Source: an uncultured Gammaproteobacteria bacterium (GTDB lineage Bacteria > Patescibacteriota > Patescibacteriia > JACPL01 > CAZRYK01). Taken from it: DNA of 64,000 nucleotides. Below, piece after piece: positions 4,071 through 59,588 of the stretch (the first letter of the stretch is position 1; each line of letters begins with the position of its first letter). Location: positions 267 through 64,266 of the forward strand of contig CAZRYK010000002.1 of the NCBI GenBank assembly GCA_964604315.1, given 5' to 3'. Both the position numbers and the translations under genes were made by a program. A model generated the notes under the pieces. It made no database searches, was not told the DNA's origin, and saw only the letters and a list, made by a program, of their open reading frames with translations.

Positions 4071-4146
4071 GTACAGCAGTCAGCCGTCAGCTGACAGAAA
4101 ATAAAAAATGTTTTAAACACTGACCACTGTCTACTGACAGCTGATT
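4071..4146. repeat. intergenic palindrome-rich element, copy 1: GTCAGCTGAC blocks flanking AAAAATGTTTTAAA
   Basis: Contains ...cagcagtcagccGTCAGCTGACAgaaaatAAAAAATGTTTTAAAcactgaccactgtctaCTGACAGCTGa... Composition is shared with 18624-18700. It sits in the divergent tyrS/PBP promoter region. Confidence 0.45.
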
Positions 4147-7321: not shown

Positions 7322-7329
7322 GATGACTA

Positions 7330-7428
7330 GCTGTAAGTAGTAAGTAATAAGCGGTAAGTAAGGGGTAAGTAACCTTTAAGAAATACTTATTACTTACAGC
7401 TTACTACTTATTACTGCTTAATCGGCAT
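7330..7428. repeat. long imperfect hairpin built from GTAAGTA / TTACTTAC units (GTAAGTA-rich repeat family)
   Basis: gctgtaagtagtaagtaataagcggtaagtaaggggtaagtaacc ... tacttattacttacagcttactacttattactgctta. Arms are reverse-complementary with imperfections. Related copies occur at 19014-19110 and 60590-60660. Confidence 0.6.
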
Positions 7429-12341: not shown

Positions 12342-12369
12342 GGATCCGACCCTTCCAAGGGTCGGATCC
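12342..12369. terminator. REP-family hairpin GGATCCGACCCT-TCCA-AGGGTCGGATCC, terminator-like, after the yidC operon
   Basis: Perfect 12-bp inverted repeat. It belongs to the GGATCCGACC family seen at six sites in the window. Confidence 0.6.
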
Positions 12370-12785: not shown

Positions 12786-12812
12786 CACAAACTTTGCTCA
12801 CGCAAAGTTTGT

Positions 12813-12942
12813 GTAATGAGTAATTCGTAGTTGGCCTGCCCGCCATTGCCTGCGGCTTCAGGCCTTGGCAGGCGGGTACTTAGCGCAAGGTAAAATTTCC
12901 TTAAAATCATCTAAGCAAAGTTTACCCCCAACTACTCAATAC
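12813..12942. repeat. MITE-like element, copy 1 (TIR GTAATGAGTA...), carrying a nested 45-bp GC-rich A-type repeat
   Basis: The core TTAGCGCAAGGTAAAATTTCCTTAAAATCATCTAAGCAAAGTTTACCCCCAACTACTCAATAC is about 80% identical to 57331-57400. The inserted segment CCTGCCCGCCATTGCCTGCGGCTTCAGGCCTTGGCAGGCGGGTAC recurs at 13207-13251. Confidence 0.55.
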
Positions 12943-12954
12943 CCACACAAAGTA

Positions 12955-13030
12955 CAAAATGTTCCCCGTCCGCCATCGGCTCCGCCTTCAGGCGTGCCGG
13001 GCGGGCACATGGAACGTTTTGTACACTAAC
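12955..13030. repeat. B-type GC-rich repeat with terminal inverted repeats AAAATGTTCC / GGAACGTTTT, copy 1
   Basis: acaaaatgttccccgtccgccatcggctccgccttcaggcgtgccgggcgggcacatggaacgttttgt. Nearly identical to 13826-13895 and about 70% similar to the A-type repeat. Confidence 0.55.
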
Positions 13031-13083
13031 TAATGAATTCAATCAGTGATTGATACTAGGGTCGTAGCTTTACTGCGACAAGA

Positions 13084-13156
13084 GGGCCTGTAGCTCATCT
13101 GGTAGAGCGCGGCATTCGCATTGCCGAGGCAAGCGGTTCGAGTCCGCTCAGGTCCA
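13084..13156 (+). tRNA. tRNA-Ala (anticodon CGC)
   Basis: Cloverleaf with acceptor GGGCCTG/CAGGTCC including the G3:U70 alanine identity pair, anticodon loop TTCGCAT, and T-loop TTCGAGT. Confidence 0.8.
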
Positions 13157-13194
13157 CGTAAATTTTTGCTAGCGCAATAATTTGAGTCTCGCGT

Positions 13195-13290
13195 TGTTAG
13201 TAATTTGCCTGCCCGCCATTGCCTGCGGCTTCAGGCGTTGGCAGGCGGGTACTTTGCGCAATGAGTGTTCCACGTGGAACACTCCAGATA
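13195..13290. repeat. A-type GC-rich repeat, copy 2, followed by the perfect 18-bp palindrome GTGTTCCACGTGGAACAC
   Basis: CCTGCCCGCCATTGCCTGCGGCTTCAGGCGTTGGCAGGCGGGTAC matches 12835-12879 with one mismatch. The palindrome lies at 13269-13286. Confidence 0.55.
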
Positions 13291-13294
13291 AATT

Positions 13295-13669
13295 ATGGAT
13301 TACAGTATCGAAAAAATTCAGCAAATTGTTCGGGAATTTGCAAAGTCTAGAAATTGGGAAGATTACCCGAATATTGACAAATTCGACCATGTTCACGAGG
13401 AGCTTATTGAAGTAAGCCAGTATTTGCGGTATAAATCTCGTGAAGAAATGGAAGGATTTCTGTCTGACCCAAAGAATAAGGCGCTTATTGAGGAAGAAAT
13501 GGGCGATGTCCTATTTGTCTTTGCGCGCCTGGCTAATCAATTAAACATTGATTTGGGTAAAGGGTTTGAAACAACCGTAGCGAAAGTCCTAAAAAAGTTC
13601 CCTGAAACTGCAGGAAAAAGTGAGTACAATCCGGTTTGGAAAGGCGACAAGCCTGGAAATAAGGAATAA
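13295..13669 (+). CDS. MazG-like nucleotide pyrophosphohydrolase domain protein
   Basis: HEELIEV and EEEMGDVLF acidic EExxE motifs of the MazG/NTP-PPase fold. The gene is embedded in the tRNA/repeat cluster. Confidence 0.55.
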   Translation: MDYSIEKIQQIVREFAKSRNWEDYPNIDKFDHVHEELIEVSQYLRYKSREEMEGFLSDPKNKALIEEEMGDVLFVFARLANQLNIDLGKGFETTVAKVLKKFPETAGKSEYNPVWKGDKPGNKE

Positions 13670-13725
13670 GTTTCCAAAATGTTCCACCACGTACCATACG
13701 GTACATGGTTCCACGTGGAACATTT

Positions 13726-13799
13726 GGGCGGCTAGCTCAGCTGGTTAGAGCGTTGCATTCACATTGCAAAGGTCACAAGTTCGAATCTTGTGCCGCCCA
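13726..13799 (+). tRNA. tRNA-Val (anticodon CAC)
   Basis: Cloverleaf with acceptor GGGCGGC/GCCGCCC, anticodon stem-loop TTGCA-TTCACAT-TGCAA, and T-loop TTCGAAT. It is preceded by the palindrome GTTCCACGTGGAAC at 13709-13722. Confidence 0.8.
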
Positions 13800-13825
13800 C
13801 GTAAATTTTACTCACACAAATGACA

Positions 13826-13895
13826 AAATGTTCCCCGTCCGCCATCGGCTTCGCCTTCAGGCGTGCCGGGCGGGCACATGGAACATTTTATTGTA
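13826..13895. repeat. B-type GC-rich repeat, copy 2
   Basis: gacaaaatgttccccgtccgccatcggcttcgccttcaggcgtgccgggcgggcacatggaacatttta, near-identical to 12955-13030. Confidence 0.55.
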
Positions 13896-18623: not shown

Positions 18624-18700
18624 AACAGCTGTCAGCAGACAGTTGTCAGGAATGCAAAAATATTTTAAATCCTGGCTGACTTACTGTCAGCTGACTGCTG
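18624..18700. repeat. intergenic palindrome-rich element, copy 2: ACAGCTGTCAGCAGACAG ... AAAAATATTTTAAA ... CTGTCAGCTGAC
   Basis: Same architecture as 4071-4146: CAGCTG / GTCAGCTGAC blocks around an AAAAATRTTTTAAA centre. It lies immediately upstream of cutA. Confidence 0.45.
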
Positions 18701-18710
18701 AAGTTTACAT

Positions 18711-19013
18711 ATGATTTTCATCGTCACCACCATTCAGACCAAAGAGCAAGCAGAGACGCTCATTAATTTGTTGTTAGAGAAAAAACTCGTTGCTTGCGCC
18801 GGGTATTTTCCCATTCAATCGCTCTACACCTGGAAAGGTGAAAAACATACGAACGATGAATACCGCATAGAGATGGAAACGCGGGACGAACTATATGATG
18901 ATGTAGAAAAAGTCCTGCGCGAGCATCACCCGTACGAAGAGCCGGTTATTTTGTCGTGGAGCGTGCGTACCGATGAAGGAACCGAAAAGTGGGTTGATGA
19001 CGTAACAGCGTGA
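18711..19013 (+). CDS. cutA: divalent-cation tolerance protein CutA
   Basis: 100-aa CutA1-like sequence (VTTIQTKEQAE...KLVACAG...YEEPV). Confidence 0.75.
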   Translation: MIFIVTTIQTKEQAETLINLLLEKKLVACAGYFPIQSLYTWKGEKHTNDEYRIEMETRDELYDDVEKVLREHHPYEEPVILSWSVRTDEGTEKWVDDVTA

Positions 19014-19110
19014 AAGTAGCAGTAAGCGGTAAGTAATAAGTAGTAACTAAGATTTATAAATTTTATTTCTACTACTTACTGCTTACAGCTTATTACTTAC
19101 TGCTAATTCA
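19014..19110. repeat. GTAAGTA-rich long hairpin (AGTAGCAGTAAGCGGTAAGTAATAAGTAGTAA ... TACTACTTACTGCTTACAGCTTATTACTTACTGCT)
   Basis: Imperfect inverted repeat about 35 bp per arm with an AT-rich loop. Same family as 7330-7428. Confidence 0.6.
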
Positions 19111-23564: not shown

Positions 23565-23584
23565 TAATAAAGTAAACGAACAAA

Positions 23585-23612
23585 GGGATCCGACCTCTGG
23601 AGGTCGGATCCC
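23585..23612 (+). terminator. REP-family hairpin GGGATCCGACCTC...GAGGTCGGATCCC after the large surface-protein gene
   Basis: Perfect inverted repeat containing GGATCCGACC, 20 nt after the stop codon. Confidence 0.6.
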
Positions 23613-23656
23613 TTCGCGAGATGCGTTGGCGTCTCGTTTTGTGGTATAATTGATAC

Positions 23657-24251: not shown

Positions 24252-24614
24252 ATGTATGACAAAAAATCCATTGGCCGCTTAGGCGAAGAATTGGCAGAAC
24301 GCTTTTTGCAACGCAAGGGCTACACGATTATAGAAAAAAACTTTCACACGCGGTTTGGAGAAATCGATATTGTGGCGCGCCAAAATTCTGCATTTATTTT
24401 TGTCGAGGTGAAAACGCGGACATCAACGTTCTTTGGTTCGCCGGAGGAATCCATTACGCCGTATAAACAAGAACGGTGGAAGAAAAGTGTCTGGGTCTAT
24501 TGCCAAACAAAAAACCTTCACCACAAACATTTGCAATTCGACGTGATTGCCATTTTACTCAACCGCGCAACCCGCACCGCCACTCTGCGACATTTTAAGA
24601 ATATTGAGATATGA
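24252..24614 (+). CDS. yraN: YraN-family (UPF0102) endonuclease
   Basis: GEELAERFLQRKGY...GEIDIVA...VEVKTR signature. The last 18 codons lie in a 52-bp sequence duplicated at 25830-25884. Confidence 0.8.
   Translation: MYDKKSIGRLGEELAERFLQRKGYTIIEKNFHTRFGEIDIVARQNSAFIFVEVKTRTSTFFGSPEESITPYKQERWKKSVWVYCQTKNLHHKHLQFDVIAILLNRATRTATLRHFKNIEI
24560..24614 (+). repeat. direct repeat copy 1 (AACCGCGCAACCCGCACCGCCACTCTGCGACATTTTAAGAATATTGAGATAT)
   Basis: 52-bp stretch identical to 25833-25884. A partial third copy (GACATTTTAAGAATATTGA) is at 30378-30396. Confidence 0.8.
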
Positions 24615-24701: not shown

Positions 24702-25826
24702 ATGGTTATTAAACGAGAAATTTACCCACGTATTCAAAAGGCGCTCTTTCGCAAGAAGGCCATTATCCTGTATGGAGCGCGGCAAGTCGGAAAAACCACA
24801 CTTCTTCGTGAAATAGAAAAACAGTACGGAGCGCGATCGCTTTACCTCAACTGCGATGAGCCGGATATTCGTTCACGACTCACCGAGAAAACATCGACCG
24901 AACTCAAAGCGTTTTTTGGCAAAGCTCGGCTCGTCTTAATTGATGAAGCGCAACGCGTGCGCGATATTGGCCTGACCATTAAACTGATTGTAGACACGCT
25001 TCCAGAGTATCAAATTGTTGCGAGCGGATCATCATCGTTTGAACTTTCCAATCGGGTGTCCGAGCCGCTTACGGGTCGTGCCTATGAGTTCCATTTGTAT
25101 CCTTTTTCGCTTTCCGAACTTCTCGCCGCTTCGAGTGATCTTGATGTTTTGCGTCTGCTCGAGCGGCGGATGATTGTTGGCATGTATCCCGAGATTGTTG
25201 TGAATGACCGGGCCGCTGAAAATCATCTTGCTTCCATCGCACAAAGTTATTTGTATAAGGATGTCCTTGAATATCACCAGATTAAAAAACCTGAAGCGTT
25301 GGAAAAATTATTGCAGGCGCTTGCGCTTCAAATCGGCTCAGAGGTTTCCTACTCCGAACTGGCAATGCTGGTTGGTGTGGAGAAACAAACCATTCAGCAG
25401 TACATTCATCTTCTTGAGCAAGCGTTTATTCTTTTTCGCCTCCCGCCATTCCGGCGTAATCTGCGAACCGAACTTCGAAAGTTACGAAAAATCTATTTTG
25501 TTGATGTTGGGGTGCGCAATGCGATTATCAAGAACATGAATCCGCTCAACATCAGGCAAGATGTTGGGGCGTTGTGGGAGAATTTCATTATGAGTGAACG
25601 CATGAAACGGAACGCAAATCGTGGCCGTTTTGTTAATGCGTACTTTTGGAGAACGCATGCGCAACAAGAGCTGGATTACCTTGAAGAAGAAGGCGGAGAA
25701 CTCCGCGCTTTCGAATTCAAATGGTCATCATCAAAGGTCCGAATTCCAAAAGCGTTTCGCGAGGCCTATCCGCAAAGCTCTGTTGACGTGGTCACAAAGG
25801 AGAATATTCTTGATTTTGTTCGTTAA
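24702..25826 (+). CDS. AAA+ ATPase (DUF4143-type C-terminal domain)
   Basis: Walker A GARQVGKTT, Walker B LVLIDEAQ, C-terminal region typical of the ATPase/DUF4143 family. The whole gene lies between 52-bp direct repeats. Confidence 0.75.
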   Translation: MVIKREIYPRIQKALFRKKAIILYGARQVGKTTLLREIEKQYGARSLYLNCDEPDIRSRLTEKTSTELKAFFGKARLVLIDEAQRVRDIGLTIKLIVDTLPEYQIVASGSSSFELSNRVSEPLTGRAYEFHLYPFSLSELLAASSDLDVLRLLERRMIVGMYPEIVVNDRAAENHLASIAQSYLYKDVLEYHQIKKPEALEKLLQALALQIGSEVSYSELAMLVGVEKQTIQQYIHLLEQAFILFRLPPFRRNLRTELRKLRKIYFVDVGVRNAIIKNMNPLNIRQDVGALWENFIMSERMKRNANRGRFVNAYFWRTHAQQELDYLEEEGGELRAFEFKWSSSKVRIPKAFREAYPQSSVDVVTKENILDFVR

Positions 25827-25829
25827 TCC

Positions 25830-25884
25830 CAACCGCGCAACCCGCACCGCCACTCTGCGACATTTTAAGAATATTGAGATATAA
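25830..25884 (+). repeat. direct repeat copy 2 (duplicate of the yraN 3' end)
   Basis: Identical 52 bp, including a pseudo C-terminal coding sequence ...NRATRTATLRHFKNIEI. Confidence 0.8.
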
Positions 25885-30265: not shown

Positions 30266-30408
30266 AAATCTAAAAAGGTGGAGCGCCAGTTTTATTGGCA
30301 CGAAATTTGGCGGCAAAGGGTGCGCGAGCGGAATTGTGTAATTCCACGATGGTAACATGGAGGGAACCCCTACCGCCGTGACATTTTAAGAATATTGAAA
30401 TTAGATTA

Positions 30409-33089: not shown

Positions 33090-33264
33090 TTCCGACTTTC
33101 AAAACATCCCTGGGCGTCCCCCGGGGATGTTTGTTGTTACGGGTTCCGAACCTGTACAAGTTCGAAACCTGTAAATGGAAAACTTGACAGGCGGCGGCGG
33201 GTTTTCTATACTAGACACAAGTATCCTTCATAGGATGCTCTTTTTTTCACTCTAAAAAAACATT

Positions 33265-34632: not shown

Positions 34633-36627
34633 ATGGATACCTTCTTAAGCTTTGCCATCATCGCGGGCGTCATTGCGCTTGTGTATGGTGTTATTTTGAT
34701 TCGCATGGTCTTAACGCTTCCGGAAGGCGATGAGAAAATGCGAAAAATTGCATCGGCGATTCAAATGGGCGCGAAAGCGTATTTGAACCGTCAAACGCGA
34801 ACCGTGGCCGTGGTTGCGGTGATTTTATTTTTACTCATTTGGTGGCAATTGAATATTCAAACAGCCGGTGGATTTTTGGTTGGCGCGGTGCTTTCTGCTG
34901 TCGCCGGTTACATTGGTATGTTAACGTCGGTGCGCGCCAATGTGCGGACCGCGGAGGCTGCTAAAGGCGGTTTAGAAAAAGCGTTGAAAGTTGCAGTGCG
35001 CGGCGGTACGGTAACAGGTTTATTGGTGGTGGGTTTGGCGTTAATTGGTGTTTCCGGCTACTATGCCATCACCAAAGACATTACCGCTCTTATTGGTTTG
35101 GGTTTTGGCGGCAGTTTAATTTCCATTTTTGCTCGCTTGGGTGGCGGGATTTATACCAAGGCCGCAGATGTGGGCGCGGATCTTGTGGGGAAGGTGGAAG
35201 CCGGAATCCCTGAAGATGACCCGCGCAACCCCGCAGTGATTGCCGATAATGTTGGTGACAATGTTGGTGATTGCGCAGGAATGGCCGCGGATCTTTTTGA
35301 GACCTACGCGGTGTCGGCTGTTGCCGCCATGTTATTTGGTTCGCTGATTTTTCCGGATTTTGACAAAGCCGTTTTGTTCCCATTGGTTTTGGGTGGCGTT
35401 GCGATTTTTGCCAGCATCATTGGAACGTGGTTCATTCGCTTGGGTAAATCCCAAAACATTATGGGCGCGCTGTATAAGGGGTTGGCGGTTGCCGGAATTT
35501 TATCGGCCGTTGCATTCTACCCCGTAACCAATAGCGTCATGGCTGACAACGGTTTGTACAGCACCAATGAACTTTTTGGTTCGGCGTTAGTCGGCTTGGT
35601 GGTGACAGCGTTATTGATCATGATTACCGAATATTACACCGCAACAAAATATAAACCCGTGCAGGCGATTGCCAAAGCCTCGGAAACAGGCCACGGCACC
35701 AACGTGATTGCGGGTTTAGGCGTGTCCATGAAAGCCACCGCCTTGCCCGTGTTGGTGATCGCGGCCGGCATTTTAGCAACCTACCAGTTGGCAGATATTT
35801 ATGGTGTAGCGATTGCGGTCATGTCCATGCTTTCCATGGCAGGGATTGTGGTCACCATCGATGCCTATGGCCCAATCACCGACAACGCCGGTGGAATTGC
35901 CGAAATGGCTGGGCTACCCGAAAGCGTACGGAATGTTACTGATCCGTTGGACGCTGTGGGCAATACCACGAAAGCCGTGACCAAGGGGTATGCCATTGGT
36001 TCCGCAGGGTTAGCCGCCGTGGTATTATTTGCAAGTTACTTAGAAGAATTTTCTGCACGCGGGCAAGATTTGATTTTCGAACTTTCGGACCCGCTAGTTT
36101 TAGTGGGGTTGTTAATTGGTGGCCTGCTTCCGTATTTGTTTGGTGCTATGGCCATGGAAGCGGTGGGGCAAACCGCCGGAGCTGTGGTGAAAGAAGTGCG
36201 CCGACAGTTTTCCGAAAACAAAGGCATTATGGATGGAACCTCGGAACCGGATTATGGACGCACCGTGGATTTGGTTACCAAAGCCGCGATTATGAAAATG
36301 ATTGTTCCGGCGTTGTTACCCGTGGTGATTCCTATTTTGGTGGGCTGGATCCTCGGGCCCGTAGCCTTAGGCGGTTTATTGATTGGTTCCATTGTGACCG
36401 GATTGTTTGTAGCCATTTCTATGACAACGGGTGGCGGCGCATGGGATAATGCCAAAAAATATATTGAAGCCGGGCACCACGGCGGCAAAGGTTCTTTGGC
36501 ACACGCCGCGGCCGTCACAGGCGACACAGTTGGTGACCCCTACAAAGACACCGCCGGCCCTGCCATTAACCCGATGATTAAGATTATCAACATTGTCGCC
36601 TTACTTCTGGTGACCCTGTTGATTTAA
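34633..36627 (+). CDS. hppA: membrane-bound proton/sodium-translocating pyrophosphatase
   Basis: [19 protein letters not shown] and DNVGDNVGD motifs of the H+-PPase family, with about 15 TM helices. Confidence 0.95.
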
Positions 36628-36634
36628 TTTAAAA

Positions 36635-36677
36635 GGGATCCGACCTCTAGAGATCCGACCCCTCTGGGGGTCGGATC
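36635..36677. repeat. REP-family element flanking the transposase 3' end: GGGATCCGACC-TCTAGA-GATCCGACCCC-TCTG-GGGGTCGGATC
   Basis: Direct repeat of GATCCGACC plus an 11-bp perfect hairpin. The RAYT stop codon and last 9 codons lie inside it. Confidence 0.7.
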
Positions 36678-37267
36678 TTGTTTTTGGCATTTTGAAAAAA
36701 GTGAAGATAATCAGGTGGCTCATCGGCCGCAGTATAACGCGACAAAATATCAAAGATTATTTTTGTCTCTATCCATGGTTGTTGCTCGTGAATGTACGCA
36801 TGAATACTTGAATAGGGGTAGGTTAATGGATCCGCGCCAATGTCACGAGGGTTGAGATGAATGTATCGTGTTAAATGAAGAAGATATTCATCTGACGGGA
36901 CAAGAATTGCCTTATATTTCTTTCCGAAGAGCGAGCCATCATGTTGATATTTTTTCTTATAATAAATCGTGTAAGCAGAAATCAAAGATTGCATAAAATG
37001 TGGGAGTGCGCGTTCTTGAGTTTGTTGTAGGGCTATATGATAGTGATTTGGCATCAGAGAAAGACTAATAATTTTAATGAGTCCAAAAAAGTTTTTTCTG
37101 TAGAGCATGGCGTCTGGCTCTGGTTGTGTTACAGCAGATTTTAGGAGATGGTAAAACATTCGGAAATCTTCTTCGTCGCGACAGATGTCATTTTTATCGT
37201 AACCGCGATTAAAAACATGGTAATAGCCATCTTTAACAAATGATCGAATATGGTATTTACTTGGCAT
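36647..37267 (-). mobile_element. IS200-like Y1 HUH transposase gene (PF01797 fold), resembling REP-associated tyrosine transposases (RAYT)
   Basis: 206 aa with YHVFNRG near the N-terminus, the HUH motif in MPNHYHIAL, and the catalytic-Tyr region LTRYIHLNP. A single gene with no tnpB, bracketed by REP hairpins. Confidence 0.7.
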
Positions 37268-37333
37268 ATAAAAATAGGGCGTGTTCGTAGAACGCCCATA
37301 AAACTATATTAGCATGAAAGAATATTTGGTACA

Positions 37334-37361
37334 AGGGATCCGACCTCCAGAGGTCGGATCC
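37334..37361. repeat. REP-family hairpin GGGATCCGACCT-CCAG-AGGTCGGATCCC flanking the transposase 5' side
   Basis: Perfect 12-bp inverted repeat, 67 nt upstream of the RAYT start. Confidence 0.7.
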
Positions 37362-37439
37362 CTCTGGGATTTGTTTTTGGCCGCGGGGCGGGGGTTGGTA
37401 GGATTTCTCCACCTTCCCCCTCCCCGCGTTGCGGGCCGT

Positions 37440-37631
37440 TCATCGGGCGGCGTACTCCTGTGCGGTCCGAAGACCGCGGAGAAACCACTCGATAAACGCA
37501 CGGCTCATGTCATCGGGTCGCATCCCGCGCAACGGGAGCGACTCGCCGATCGCCGAGATCTCCTCTTCGGAGGCATCGACGTTTAGTGACACGAGCCGAC
37601 GTTGCACGGCCAAGAAATTCGACGGGTACAT
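37440..37631 (-). CDS. small GC-rich ORF, family member B (hypothetical)
   Basis: GGAG Shine-Dalgarno 8 nt upstream. It sits in a roughly 500-bp GC-rich islet (37370-37900) and is followed by a GC hairpin CGCGGGGAGGGGG...CCCCCGCCCCGCG. Paralogous to the ORFs at 31318 and 54985. Confidence 0.35.
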   Translation of the reverse strand: MYPSNFLAVQRRLVSLNVDASEEEISAIGESLPLRGMRPDDMSRAFIEWFLRGLRTAQEYAAR

Positions 37632-37955
37632 GTCGTTTCTCCGAAACGAAAAAGGCCTCTTGCTCCCGCACGCGGGAACAACAAGCCTTTTGTGAAGCTT
37701 TAATTCTCCAGTAATGCCGACTGTCGGCTCCGGAGCGCATCCCCGCGGGGGACTTCTTTTACCACCTTACCGCTTCACTATGCGGGCAGGTTGGCGGGAC
37801 GTCACTGGGCGAAGTAGCCCTACGTCCTCTCTTAATGCTGTCTTTTCGAAGATCTAAAGACATCTTAACCAACCCCCCTTCTTTTGTCAAACATTGTTCG
37901 CCGCTGGAAGAATTGATAGAATAAAGTAGTAAATAAATATTTTGTAGCGATCGGA

Positions 37956-45393: not shown

Positions 45394-45465
45394 GCGGGAG
45401 TAGCTCAGTGGTAGAGCGTAACATTGCCAATGTTAAGGTCGCGGGTTCGATCCCCGTTTCCCGCT
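45394..45465 (+). tRNA. tRNA-Gly (anticodon GCC)
   Basis: Cloverleaf with acceptor GCGGGAG/TTCCCGC, D-arm AGCTCAGTGGTAGAGC, anticodon loop TTGCCAA, and T-loop TTCGATC. Confidence 0.85.
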
Positions 45466-45508
45466 CTCGCGCCGAAATCACGACTTCAACCTGCGAAGGT
45501 CCCGATTT

Positions 45509-45704: not shown

Positions 45705-46016
45705 GCCGGGGTGGTGAAATTGGTATACACGAGGGACTTTAACAATATGAGCACCGGTTGCGGAAACGCTCCGTGTGAATGAGGTCAAATTCGGGGAAGC
45801 CCTGACGTCACGTCGAGGTAATCCCGAGCCAATCCCCGTACCGTACGGTGCAGGGCAGGTGTAGAGACTTAACGGCCTCCTCCTACGTGTCACAAGCATA
45901 TGGAGAAGAGAGAGTCCAGACTACGAACCACGTAAAAAGCGTGGGCGATGAAAATCGAAGTAGTATGAAAATCCCTTGGGAGCAATCCCGTGCGGGTTCG
46001 AGTCCCGCCCTCGGCA
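45705..46016 (+). tRNA. tRNA-Leu (anticodon UAA) interrupted by a 228-nt group I intron between U34 and A35
   Basis: 5' exon GCCGGGGTGGTGAAATTGGTATACACGAGGGACTT (3-bp D-stem and long D-loop typical of type II tRNAs). 3' exon AAAATCCCT + TGGGAGCAATCCCGT (long variable arm) + GCGGGTTCGAGTCCCGC + CCTCGGC + A. The exons only form a cloverleaf once 45740-45967 is removed. Confidence 0.8.
45740..45967 (+). ncRNA. group I self-splicing intron in the tRNA-Leu(UAA) anticodon loop
   Basis: Inserted at the canonical U34/A35 site used by cyanobacterial/plastid tRNA-Leu(UAA) introns. It follows an exon U, ends in G (omega-G), and contains the P7-like CAGACTACG and GGGAAGCCCTGACG core-like segments. Confidence 0.7.
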
Positions 46017-59554: not shown

Positions 59555-59588
59555 GGATCCGACCCTGGCACGTATTTGGGTCGGATCC
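59555..59588. repeat. REP-family hairpin GGATCCGACCC-(12 nt)-GGGTCGGATCC
   Basis: Perfect 11-bp inverted repeat downstream of secG. Confidence 0.6.

Follow-up and report, generated by a model that had tools for sequence, protein, structure and literature searches.

Systems of repetitive extragenic palindromes (REPs) and REP-associated tyrosine transposases (RAYTs) have been characterised almost solely in Proteobacteria, with some in Cyanobacteria and Bacteroidetes, and no report of either in the candidate phyla radiation (CPR) or Patescibacteria was found in the literature searched, the coverage of which was incomplete. The question raised by the locus described here is whether such a system resides in a genome of this kind. 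In a 64-kb stretch of contig CAZRYK010000002.1 (the whole of which is called the window), a single HUH/Y1 transposase gene lies between two hairpins of one sequence family, and an earlier note, made from the letters of the window alone, had proposed a RAYT with its REPs in what looked like a CPR-type genome. The latter assignment is borne out, as the nearest homologs and the syntenic contigs are from Kerfeldbacteria and other Patescibacteria. With regard to the system itself, we hold with moderate confidence that the locus is a REPtron-like unit, in which a class-2 (Y...NP) HUH/Y1 transposase disperses its cognate hairpin.

The transposase and the hairpins that flank it

The open reading frame (ORF) of the transposase encodes the motifs YHVFNRG, LMPNHYH (with the HUH residues H75-Y-H77) and RYIHLNP (with the catalytic Tyr135), in agreement with the motifs described in the earlier note, and the protein matches the Pfam family Y1_Tnp (PF01797) at 29.1 bits, the cutoff being 23. 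In an alignment of 40 homologs of the window transposase (A1), the residues Y16-H17..N20-R21-G22, L-M-P-N-H75-x-H77, R-Y135-I-H-L-N-P, S153-S154 and W165 are invariant, and LMPNH[FY]H, LFQG and YPYSS are also conserved; judged from its sequence, the ORF is intact and its catalytic residues are conserved. The sole NCBIfam match of the protein at E <= 0.1 is REP_Tyr_transpos (NF047646; 29.7 bits). This model is matched by 40 of 40 family members, and the IS200 model NF033573 by one of the 40, weakly (E 0.005). The AlphaFold (AF2) model of the transposase (pLDDT 91) has as its top Foldseek match in the PDB 4ER8_A (E 2.1e-6, 158 aligned columns, TMt 0.64), which is E. coli TnpA_REP bound to a REP hairpin; the transposases of ISDra2, IS608 and IS200 rank after it, with about 124 aligned columns. 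A sequence-only search of the PDB returned weak ISDra2 matches and 4ER8 at E 0.28 only; the match to 4ER8 became clear with the fold search. Within the TnpA_Y1 superfamily the Y...NP signature is that of class 2 (TnpA_REP-like), whereas IS200 has Y...Q and DH[VI]H (PMC6006769). By its Y...NP motif, its profile match and its predicted fold, the window transposase is therefore of the RAYT/TnpA_REP class, and does not group with classical IS200 TnpA.

The gene is convergent with its left neighbour, which encodes an H+/Na+ membrane pyrophosphatase (PPase; 34633-36627), and is followed on the right side by a small ORF, a SAM-I/IV riboswitch and two PlsC-type acyltransferases. As the earlier note had stated, there is no TnpB partner; no TnpB-like gene adjoins the transposase or was found elsewhere in the window, and the window holds no second transposase copy.

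The hairpins around the gene belong to a repeat family that is marked by the 10-mer GGATCCGACC, which occurs 10 times exactly in the window and 13 times when one mismatch is allowed. Shuffled sequences contained 2.6 +/- 1.45 occurrences, and 13 was reached in 0 of 100 shuffles. The occurrences form five hairpin loci, two of them flanking the gene and three solo (Table 1); six sites had been counted previously, and what was found besides the five is an extra half arm at 36636-45. All five loci fold as single-stranded DNA hairpins with stems of 11-14 bp (z = -4.2 to -6.1; 0 of 200 shuffles folded as well), and of the only 12 perfect hairpins of 10 bp or more that the window contains, 5 belong to this family. 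All five copies agree in nine stem pairs, while the stem base, stem top and loop vary with complementarity mostly kept (stem-top variants include CTT/AAG, TC/GA and CC/GG). Changes at the stem ends are compensatory, and the lower stem is invariant.

The two flanking copies bracket the gene, as had been proposed, and are direct repeats of about 55 nt on the plus strand (AAGGGATCCGACCTC...TTGTTTTTGGC), with a hairpin of 12-14 bp in either repeat. On the PPase side the repeat is made up of the half arm, the hairpin AGATCCGACCCC-TCTG-GGGGTCGGATCT at 36651-78 (arms AGATCCGACC) and the tail TTGTTTTTGG; upstream of the gene it is made up of the hairpin AGGGATCCGACCTC-CA-GAGGTCGGATCCCT (37334-63) and the same tail (37371-80). 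The last ten codons of the ORF (KIRPPEGSDL) are encoded by the hairpin at 36651-36678, confirming that the 3' end of the gene lies inside the left repeat, and such hairpins add spurious C-terminal tails to annotated ORFs. Among the solo copies, the sites at 12342 and 59555 have the 3' tail TGATT..GTTTATT in common, and the hairpin at 23583-23614 is 97% identical, in inverted orientation, to 37333-66. Both intergenic gaps adjoining the gene are occupied, which by a rough estimate has p ~0.005 if five sites are placed at random among about 65 gaps.

Table 1. Coordinates of the transposase gene, its hairpin repeats and related features in the window
Feature	Position	Strand	Remarks
RAYT-like HUH/Y1 transposase gene	36647..37267	(-)	206 aa
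Gene-flanking repeat, PPase side (3' end of transposase gene)	36634..36688	(+)	~55-nt direct repeat
Gene-flanking repeat upstream of transposase	37332..37381	(+)	aligns as direct repeat of 36634-36688
Solo hairpin	12342..12369	(+)	18 nt past stop of 89-aa PRC-like ORF (yidC operon end)
Solo hairpin	23583..23614	(-)	19-22 nt past 1317-aa ORF
Solo hairpin, 12-nt loop	59555..59588	(+)	between secG-like ORF (-) and ORF 59689 (+), divergent
Degenerate relic of related hairpin type (GGTTCCGAACCTGTACAAGTTCGAAACCTG; GGTTCCGAACC...GTTCGAAACC)	33142..33171	(+)	upstream of nusA; L199 alignment
Small hairpin, presumed 5' leader of transposase gene	37277..37297	(-)	sequence reading only

The hairpins had been described in the earlier note as terminator-like structures after operons, and it is conceivable that they are nothing more than look-alike intrinsic terminators, between two of which the transposase gene landed by chance. 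In a terminator scan of the sense strand, only the sites at 12342 and 36650 (the latter at the PPase gene) passed, 9-18 nt past a stop codon; for these two the description stands, and their sequence suggests that they probably act as terminators as well. It does not hold for the site at 23586, which is terminator-like on the antisense strand only and where the hairpin at 23616-37 is likely the better candidate for a terminator than that at 23583-23614, nor for the site at 59555, which sits between divergent promoters and is not terminator-like. Because a sense-strand terminator appearance is found in two of five copies, termination would be at most a secondary role. Furthermore, the recurrence of one unchanged 10-mer stem at five loci far exceeds what chance would yield, the other strong hairpins of the window are of unrelated sequence, and a private hairpin flanks the gene in 57 of 81 homologous loci as opposed to 0 of 162 controls (see below). 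A single stem family that is concentrated around the gene, with few terminator passes, indicates that the hairpins are not generic terminators, and chance placement between two such terminators is very improbable. Neither generic terminators lacking enrichment near the gene nor a grouping of the protein with classical IS200 TnpA, the two outcomes that the earlier note had named as contrary to its proposal, was observed, and the RAYT interpretation is thus supported.

Three further palindromic families were seen in the window: GGCAAGAGCTTAGCTCTTGCC (19439-66, 49481-536 and 55313-40), inverted repeats rich in GTAAGTAATAAG (7328-7415, 19003-19108 and 60597-631) and arms rich in CTGTCAGC (4080-4143 and 18626-18701). 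These possibly belong, as cognate repeats, to further Y1 genes in other parts of the genome.

Private hairpins across the transposase family

A homolog search returned 4,699 proteins, of which the named ones are from Patescibacteria (Kerfeldbacteria, CPR2, Levybacteria and Curtissbacteria). A further 87 loci were gathered, and the 81 with both flanks were used to compare 160 nt upstream of the gene with 205 nt around and past its stop codon for the longest exact word in either orientation, with 162 pairs of sequence windows from the same contigs serving as controls. In 57 of the 81 homologous loci, mostly of Patescibacteria, the two flanks have an exact word of 14 nt or more in common, compared to 0 of the 162 control pairs, and in 69 of the 81 the word is longer than the maximum of 30 shuffles. 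The common words are hairpins and differ from locus to locus (AAGTACGGAACTT, GAGATCCGTTCTC, AAGGGACCGTCCCTT, GATTCAACCTTGTACAAGGTTGAATC, AAAGGTCTGACCTTT and CCTGCAGGGCCAGGCCCTGCAGG, for example). A mini-palindrome of the form GGxy-N-y'x'CC is present in 43 of the 81 loci, at about nine times the random-window rate in the flanks, its common forms being GGTCCGACC, GGCCAGGCC and GGTTCAACC.

Distinct hairpins accompany the family members P0001 (the window protein), P0005/6, P0008, P0009, P0002/3 and P0004, and the same holds for paralogs within one genome. In GCA_964578475.1, P0009 lies after the PPase gene with GGGACCGTCCC and P0004 lies after rplT with GGGGTCCGACCC; in locus L170, two genes that are 40% identical have a separate hairpin each. 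These data show that each gene or paralog has its own hairpin family. Locus L127 contains two tandem units that are 79% identical and have one hairpin type, indicating that the whole unit was duplicated. The graded series of hairpin arms in the clade of the window transposase, (G/A)G(A/T/G)(T/A)CCG(A/T)(A/C/T)C, suggests common descent and co-divergence with the enzymes. P0002 and P0004, with the C-terminal tails ..EGSDL and ..GSDP, were considered as sharing the window hairpin and were rejected, their flanks carrying hairpins of the GGGTTGAACCC and GGGGTCCGACCC types.

Solo copies are also found beyond the window, at 24 sites in 470 kb of the fetched loci by exact 11-mers (about 1 per 20 kb), where a rough estimate of the chance expectation is 0.1 per locus. 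No near-identical copies of the transposase were found; the window protein is the one member of its cluster, and paralogs are 40-79% identical. A scan of viral contigs produced one weak relative, from which it follows that the transposase family is not phage-borne.

A contig scan for the hairpin pattern returned, among the matches listed, mostly high-GC genomes, the relevant ones being a Kerfeldbacteria metagenome-assembled genome (MAG; L025 and L089) and a Patescibacteria contig (L046). In this Kerfeldbacteria MAG (GCA_016182525.1), three to four GGTCGGATC/GGATCCGACC arms with A/T-rich linkers stand at 4294-4352 of L025 and 4711-4794 of L089 in the manner of bacterial interspersed mosaic elements (BIMEs); no Y1 gene lies within these two 8-kb loci, and the transposase at the PPase site of the same genome (P0005) is flanked by another hairpin, GATCCGTTCTC. 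Many Stenotrophomonas loci (e.g., L005-L008, L015 and L016) have multi-copy repeats of their own on a GGATCCGACC...GGTCGGATCC stem, and so does the Acidimicrobiia MAG OY760694.1 (L004, L063, L066, L069 and L104), the copies of which have about 60 nt of identical context in common. The same stem in unrelated genomes probably reflects convergence or independent REP-like families.

Turnover of the cassette and the competing explanations

A homolog convergent with the same PPase gene is present in four other genomes (L112/L198, L113, L114 and L199). The PPase of L113 is 95.6% and that of L199 97% identical to the window PPase at the amino acid level; the other neighbours compared in L113 (the two acyltransferases and an AMP-binding protein) are 80-89% identical to those of the window; L199 is 90% identical to the window over 4.7 kb of nucleotide sequence, and the flanks of L113 and L199 are 83-90% identical. 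In these two relatives, however, the transposase is only 44-47% identical to that of the window, and the accompanying hairpin is AAGTACGGAACTT. Homology between the window and L113 ends at the PPase stop codon (36627) and restarts at a GC-rich hairpin (37383-37427), and the hairpin-gene-hairpin unit at about 36628-37384 is accordingly a variable block. An empty site was found in L201, a complete-looking Kerfeldbacteria contig of 1.1 Mb, and in L202, where nusA and the PPase gene are followed by 24 nt and the two acyltransferase genes.

The hairpins change at orthologous sites as well. The site behind the PRC-like ORF holds the GGATCCGACC hairpin in the window (12342) and AGGTTCGGAAC-CTGTACAA-GTTCCGAACCT in L204, whose YidC is 95% identical to that of the window. 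Upstream of nusA, within flanks that are 93-100% identical, hairpins of its own type form a cluster in L199, and the window has the degenerate relic listed in Table 1. This relic was found only through the alignment with L199; exact words gave no relics of the relatives' hairpin types in the window, and searches allowing three mismatches stayed at chance level. Tentatively, and with less than even confidence, we suggest that when a genome acquires or evolves a new enzyme-hairpin pair, the new cognate type overwrites the solo hairpins already present at fixed intergenic positions, which would account for the differing hairpin variants at orthologous sites in genomes that are 76-90% identical and for the decaying relic at 33142-71. 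If true, this would be direct comparative evidence of a RAYT-class enzyme rewriting its repeat population in place, and would define a branch of REP systems that is specific to the CPR, lacks the GTAG and resides in genomes of about 1 Mb.

Turnover of this kind also brings in the possibility that the locus is an autonomous insertion sequence (IS) of the IS200 type, in which the unit at about 36628-37384 would be the transposon, the hairpins would be its ends on one strand, and the solo hairpins would be decayed ends or resemble miniature inverted-repeat transposable elements. The ends are indeed directly repeated on one strand, which is also the case in IS608; the gene, at 38.8% GC, is 10 points below its flanks (48.8%; 45.6% for the whole window), and 50 of 52 family genes are AT-richer than their surroundings, by a median of 7 GC points. 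The empty site in L201, the finding of another unit in this position in relatives that are 83-90% identical, the duplication of a whole unit in L127 and the occurrence of close homologs after rplT in other genomes would likewise suit such an element. Conversely, there is one copy in 64 kb, with no near-identical copies and with paralogs of only 40-79% identity, at least five genomes have a gene at this same locus, solo hairpins outnumber genes, and the family is almost missing from viral contigs. Moreover, the protein has Y...NP, NHYH and 206 aa instead of Y...Q, DH[VI]H and about 150 aa, and by profile and fold is nearer to TnpA_REP. We regard an IS200-like element, for which most of the same observations speak, as a less probable explanation.

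A third possibility is that the protein is a host-recruited factor that binds or nicks hairpins, for instance as an autoregulator or in the processing of mRNA 3' ends or linked to replication, and that the hairpins are immobile operators or binding sites. In line with this, the upstream hairpin abuts a putative weak -35 element (TTGTAC, 37334-29, read by eye), the hairpin lies 4-70 nt from the ATG in other loci, operon-end hairpins are found at three of five sites, and the catalytic core is kept in 40 of 40 homologs. The promoter scan, however, detected no promoter on the minus strand upstream of the transposase gene, and the reading of TTGTAC-17-TAATAT as its promoter, with which the scan does not agree, is a mere suggestion. 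In addition, hairpins and genes turn over in close relatives and one Kerfeldbacteria genome is without the gene at this locus, which is unexpected for a fixed function. A host factor of this kind is therefore improbable.

In the REPtron-like explanation favoured here, each of the two direct repeats would carry the cognate GGATCCGACC hairpin of the enzyme, and the solo copies would have been seeded in other intergenic regions. The enzyme would bind the hairpin in single-stranded DNA, for instance on the lagging-strand template, and would cut and rejoin the strand beside the hairpin foot, with a metal held by His75 and His77 and with Tyr135 forming a 5'-phosphotyrosine link. As a result, hairpins would be copied or moved to new sites, and the whole hairpin-gene-hairpin cassette would be moved or exchanged. 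Binding, cleavage, the strand used, the position of cleavage and who moves what are modelled on E. coli TnpA_REP and on the TnpA of IS608 and ISDra2.

Several observations weigh against this explanation. A canonical REP has a 5' GT[AG]G tetranucleotide at the foot of its hairpin (PMC6006769), and no such foot is conserved in the window, the 5' flanks being CCAGT, CAAAG, AAAAG, ACAAG and GTACC. All five loci are single palindromes and none is a REP doublet (REPIN), the site at 36636-78 being a half arm plus one hairpin. The density is five loci per 64 kb, three of them solo; classically, dispersed REPs number more than 100 per genome. The 29.7 bits of the NF047646 match fall short of its equivalog cutoff of 80 bits. 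Published surveys describe no REPs beside genes of subclass 2.1 (PMC6006769), the subclass whose motifs the window protein matches. Lastly, the cassette is swapped between close relatives, and this together with the AT-richness of the gene and its family is more in keeping with a selfish mobile element than with a domesticated RAYT. The neighbor-joining protein tree of the PPase-site genes has bootstraps of 40-59, and for this reason does not separate the replacement of a gene like P0008, which goes with AAGTACGGAACTT, from very fast co-evolution in situ. The cassette looks more mobile or replaceable than domesticated proteobacterial RAYTs.

Around the cassette, GGGCG...CGCCC hairpins like that in Table 1 also stand 9-15 nt ahead of the transposase start codon in L112, L114 and L198, and their sequence and position suggest that they may be a translational or leader element. 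The GC-rich hairpin at 37383-37427 (GCGGGGCGGGGG...CCCCCTCCCCGC) is an island conserved in L113 between the transposase cassette and the small ORF, both of which are variable. This ORF (37440-37631, minus strand) encodes 63 aa, has 62% GC and no Pfam match, and comes after the SAM-I/IV riboswitch (37690-37843, minus strand; 43 bits against a gathering score of 41.1), which is about 90% conserved with L113 and has a terminator-like hairpin beside it at about 37645-37690. The same riboswitch precedes an unrelated 78-aa ORF in L113, and the equivalent place in L112 is taken by a gene for homocysteine S-methyltransferase; the small ORFs could represent remnants or another variable cassette. Elsewhere in the window, a match to a group I intron (45729-45935, plus strand; 50.9 bits against a gathering score of 50) follows a tRNA-Gly gene (45394-45466) at a distance of about 260 nt, and the genes of tRNA-Arg, tRNA-Ala and tRNA-Val at 12808-13889 are interleaved with two pairs of direct repeats of 81 nt (identity 85% and 94%) that bear GC-rich hairpins. 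A perfect 53-nt direct repeat (24560-24612 and 25830-25882, 1270 nt apart) surrounds an ORF at 24702-25826, and a third, partial copy, 95% identical, is at 30380-30401.

Relation to known systems and significance

The E. coli TnpA_REP (a RAYT of subclass 2.2; 4ER8) is the best structural match and has the HUH motif and a single catalytic Tyr in Y...NP in common with the window protein, to which it is about 13% identical; the corresponding motifs are DHLH, WE and YIHYNP in E. coli and NHYH, FQ and YIHLNP in the window. The E. coli REPtron likewise consists of one gene copy between copies of a short palindrome, which is found scattered through intergenic DNA as well, and in both systems each gene goes with a palindrome family of its own. 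However, the GT[AG]G guide, the long bulged stems and the REPIN/BIME doublets of E. coli have no counterpart in the window, the copy number is so far modest (64 kb) compared to that of E. coli REPs, the host has a CPR genome of the 1-Mb class and is not a proteobacterium, and the window cassette differs between close relatives, whereas the E. coli RAYT is stably inherited.

On motif comparison only, the window protein matches subclass 2.1 (Quentin et al. 2018), for which NH[YF]H, FQ, Y[IV]HLNP and a downstream SS are given in Table 1 of PMC6006769. This subclass corresponds to the Group 1 RAYTs, which among the RAYT groups have been called the most IS-like and the most widespread (Bertels et al. 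2017), and probably to the 'TIRYT' of PMC3733652 (Di Nocera et al. 2013). A low copy number is a point of likeness. Dissimilar from the window family, in which most loci have short hairpin repeats on both sides of the gene, subclass 2.1/TIRYT genes have long terminal inverted repeats, many with GGGGWSAS, a motif that was not seen on reading the window flanks. The subclass 2.1 proteins have a median of 238 aa and a C-terminal helix-turn-helix (HTH)-like domain, whereas the 206-aa window transposase has no Pfam match to an HTH.

IS200, IS608 and ISDra2 (subclass 1.1) resemble the window locus in the HUH/Y1 fold, in having a single small gene between similar subterminal hairpins on the same strand, in an ORF that can run into the end hairpin and in being AT-rich relative to the host. 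They differ in Y...Q (Y[IV]ENQ), DH[VI]H and a core-only protein of about 150 aa, as opposed to YIHLNP, NHYH and 206 aa, and in occurring as multiple near-identical copies, often with tnpB, neither of which was seen in the 64-kb window. The REPIN-RAYT systems of Pseudomonas (subclass 2.5/Group 3) similarly comprise divergent paralogs with private repeats, comparable to L170 and GCA_964578475.1. Their REPINs are doublets with GTAG feet, are present in the hundreds and are vertically stable over long periods; in contrast, the hairpins of the window family are singlets, far fewer were seen, and the enzyme-hairpin pair changes at 83-90% flank identity.

Non-IS tnpA_Y1 genes have been reported as commoner in large genomes (PMC6006769). 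Here, a large family in Patescibacteria, with thousands of homologs, combines in most loci a gene and a private hairpin in genomes of about 1 Mb and without a GTAG guide. The layout of this family contradicts the description of subclass 2.1 as lacking REPs, and widens the range of REP-type systems, in phylogeny as well as in sequence, so as to take in reduced CPR genomes. On the practical side, the hairpins break short-read CPR assemblies, as seen in the Logan contig L001, which stops at the upstream hairpin. The many natural pairs of enzyme and hairpin could help to derive the rules of recognition, and the turnover of a repeat family could be followed in close relatives that differ in the pair present at one locus.

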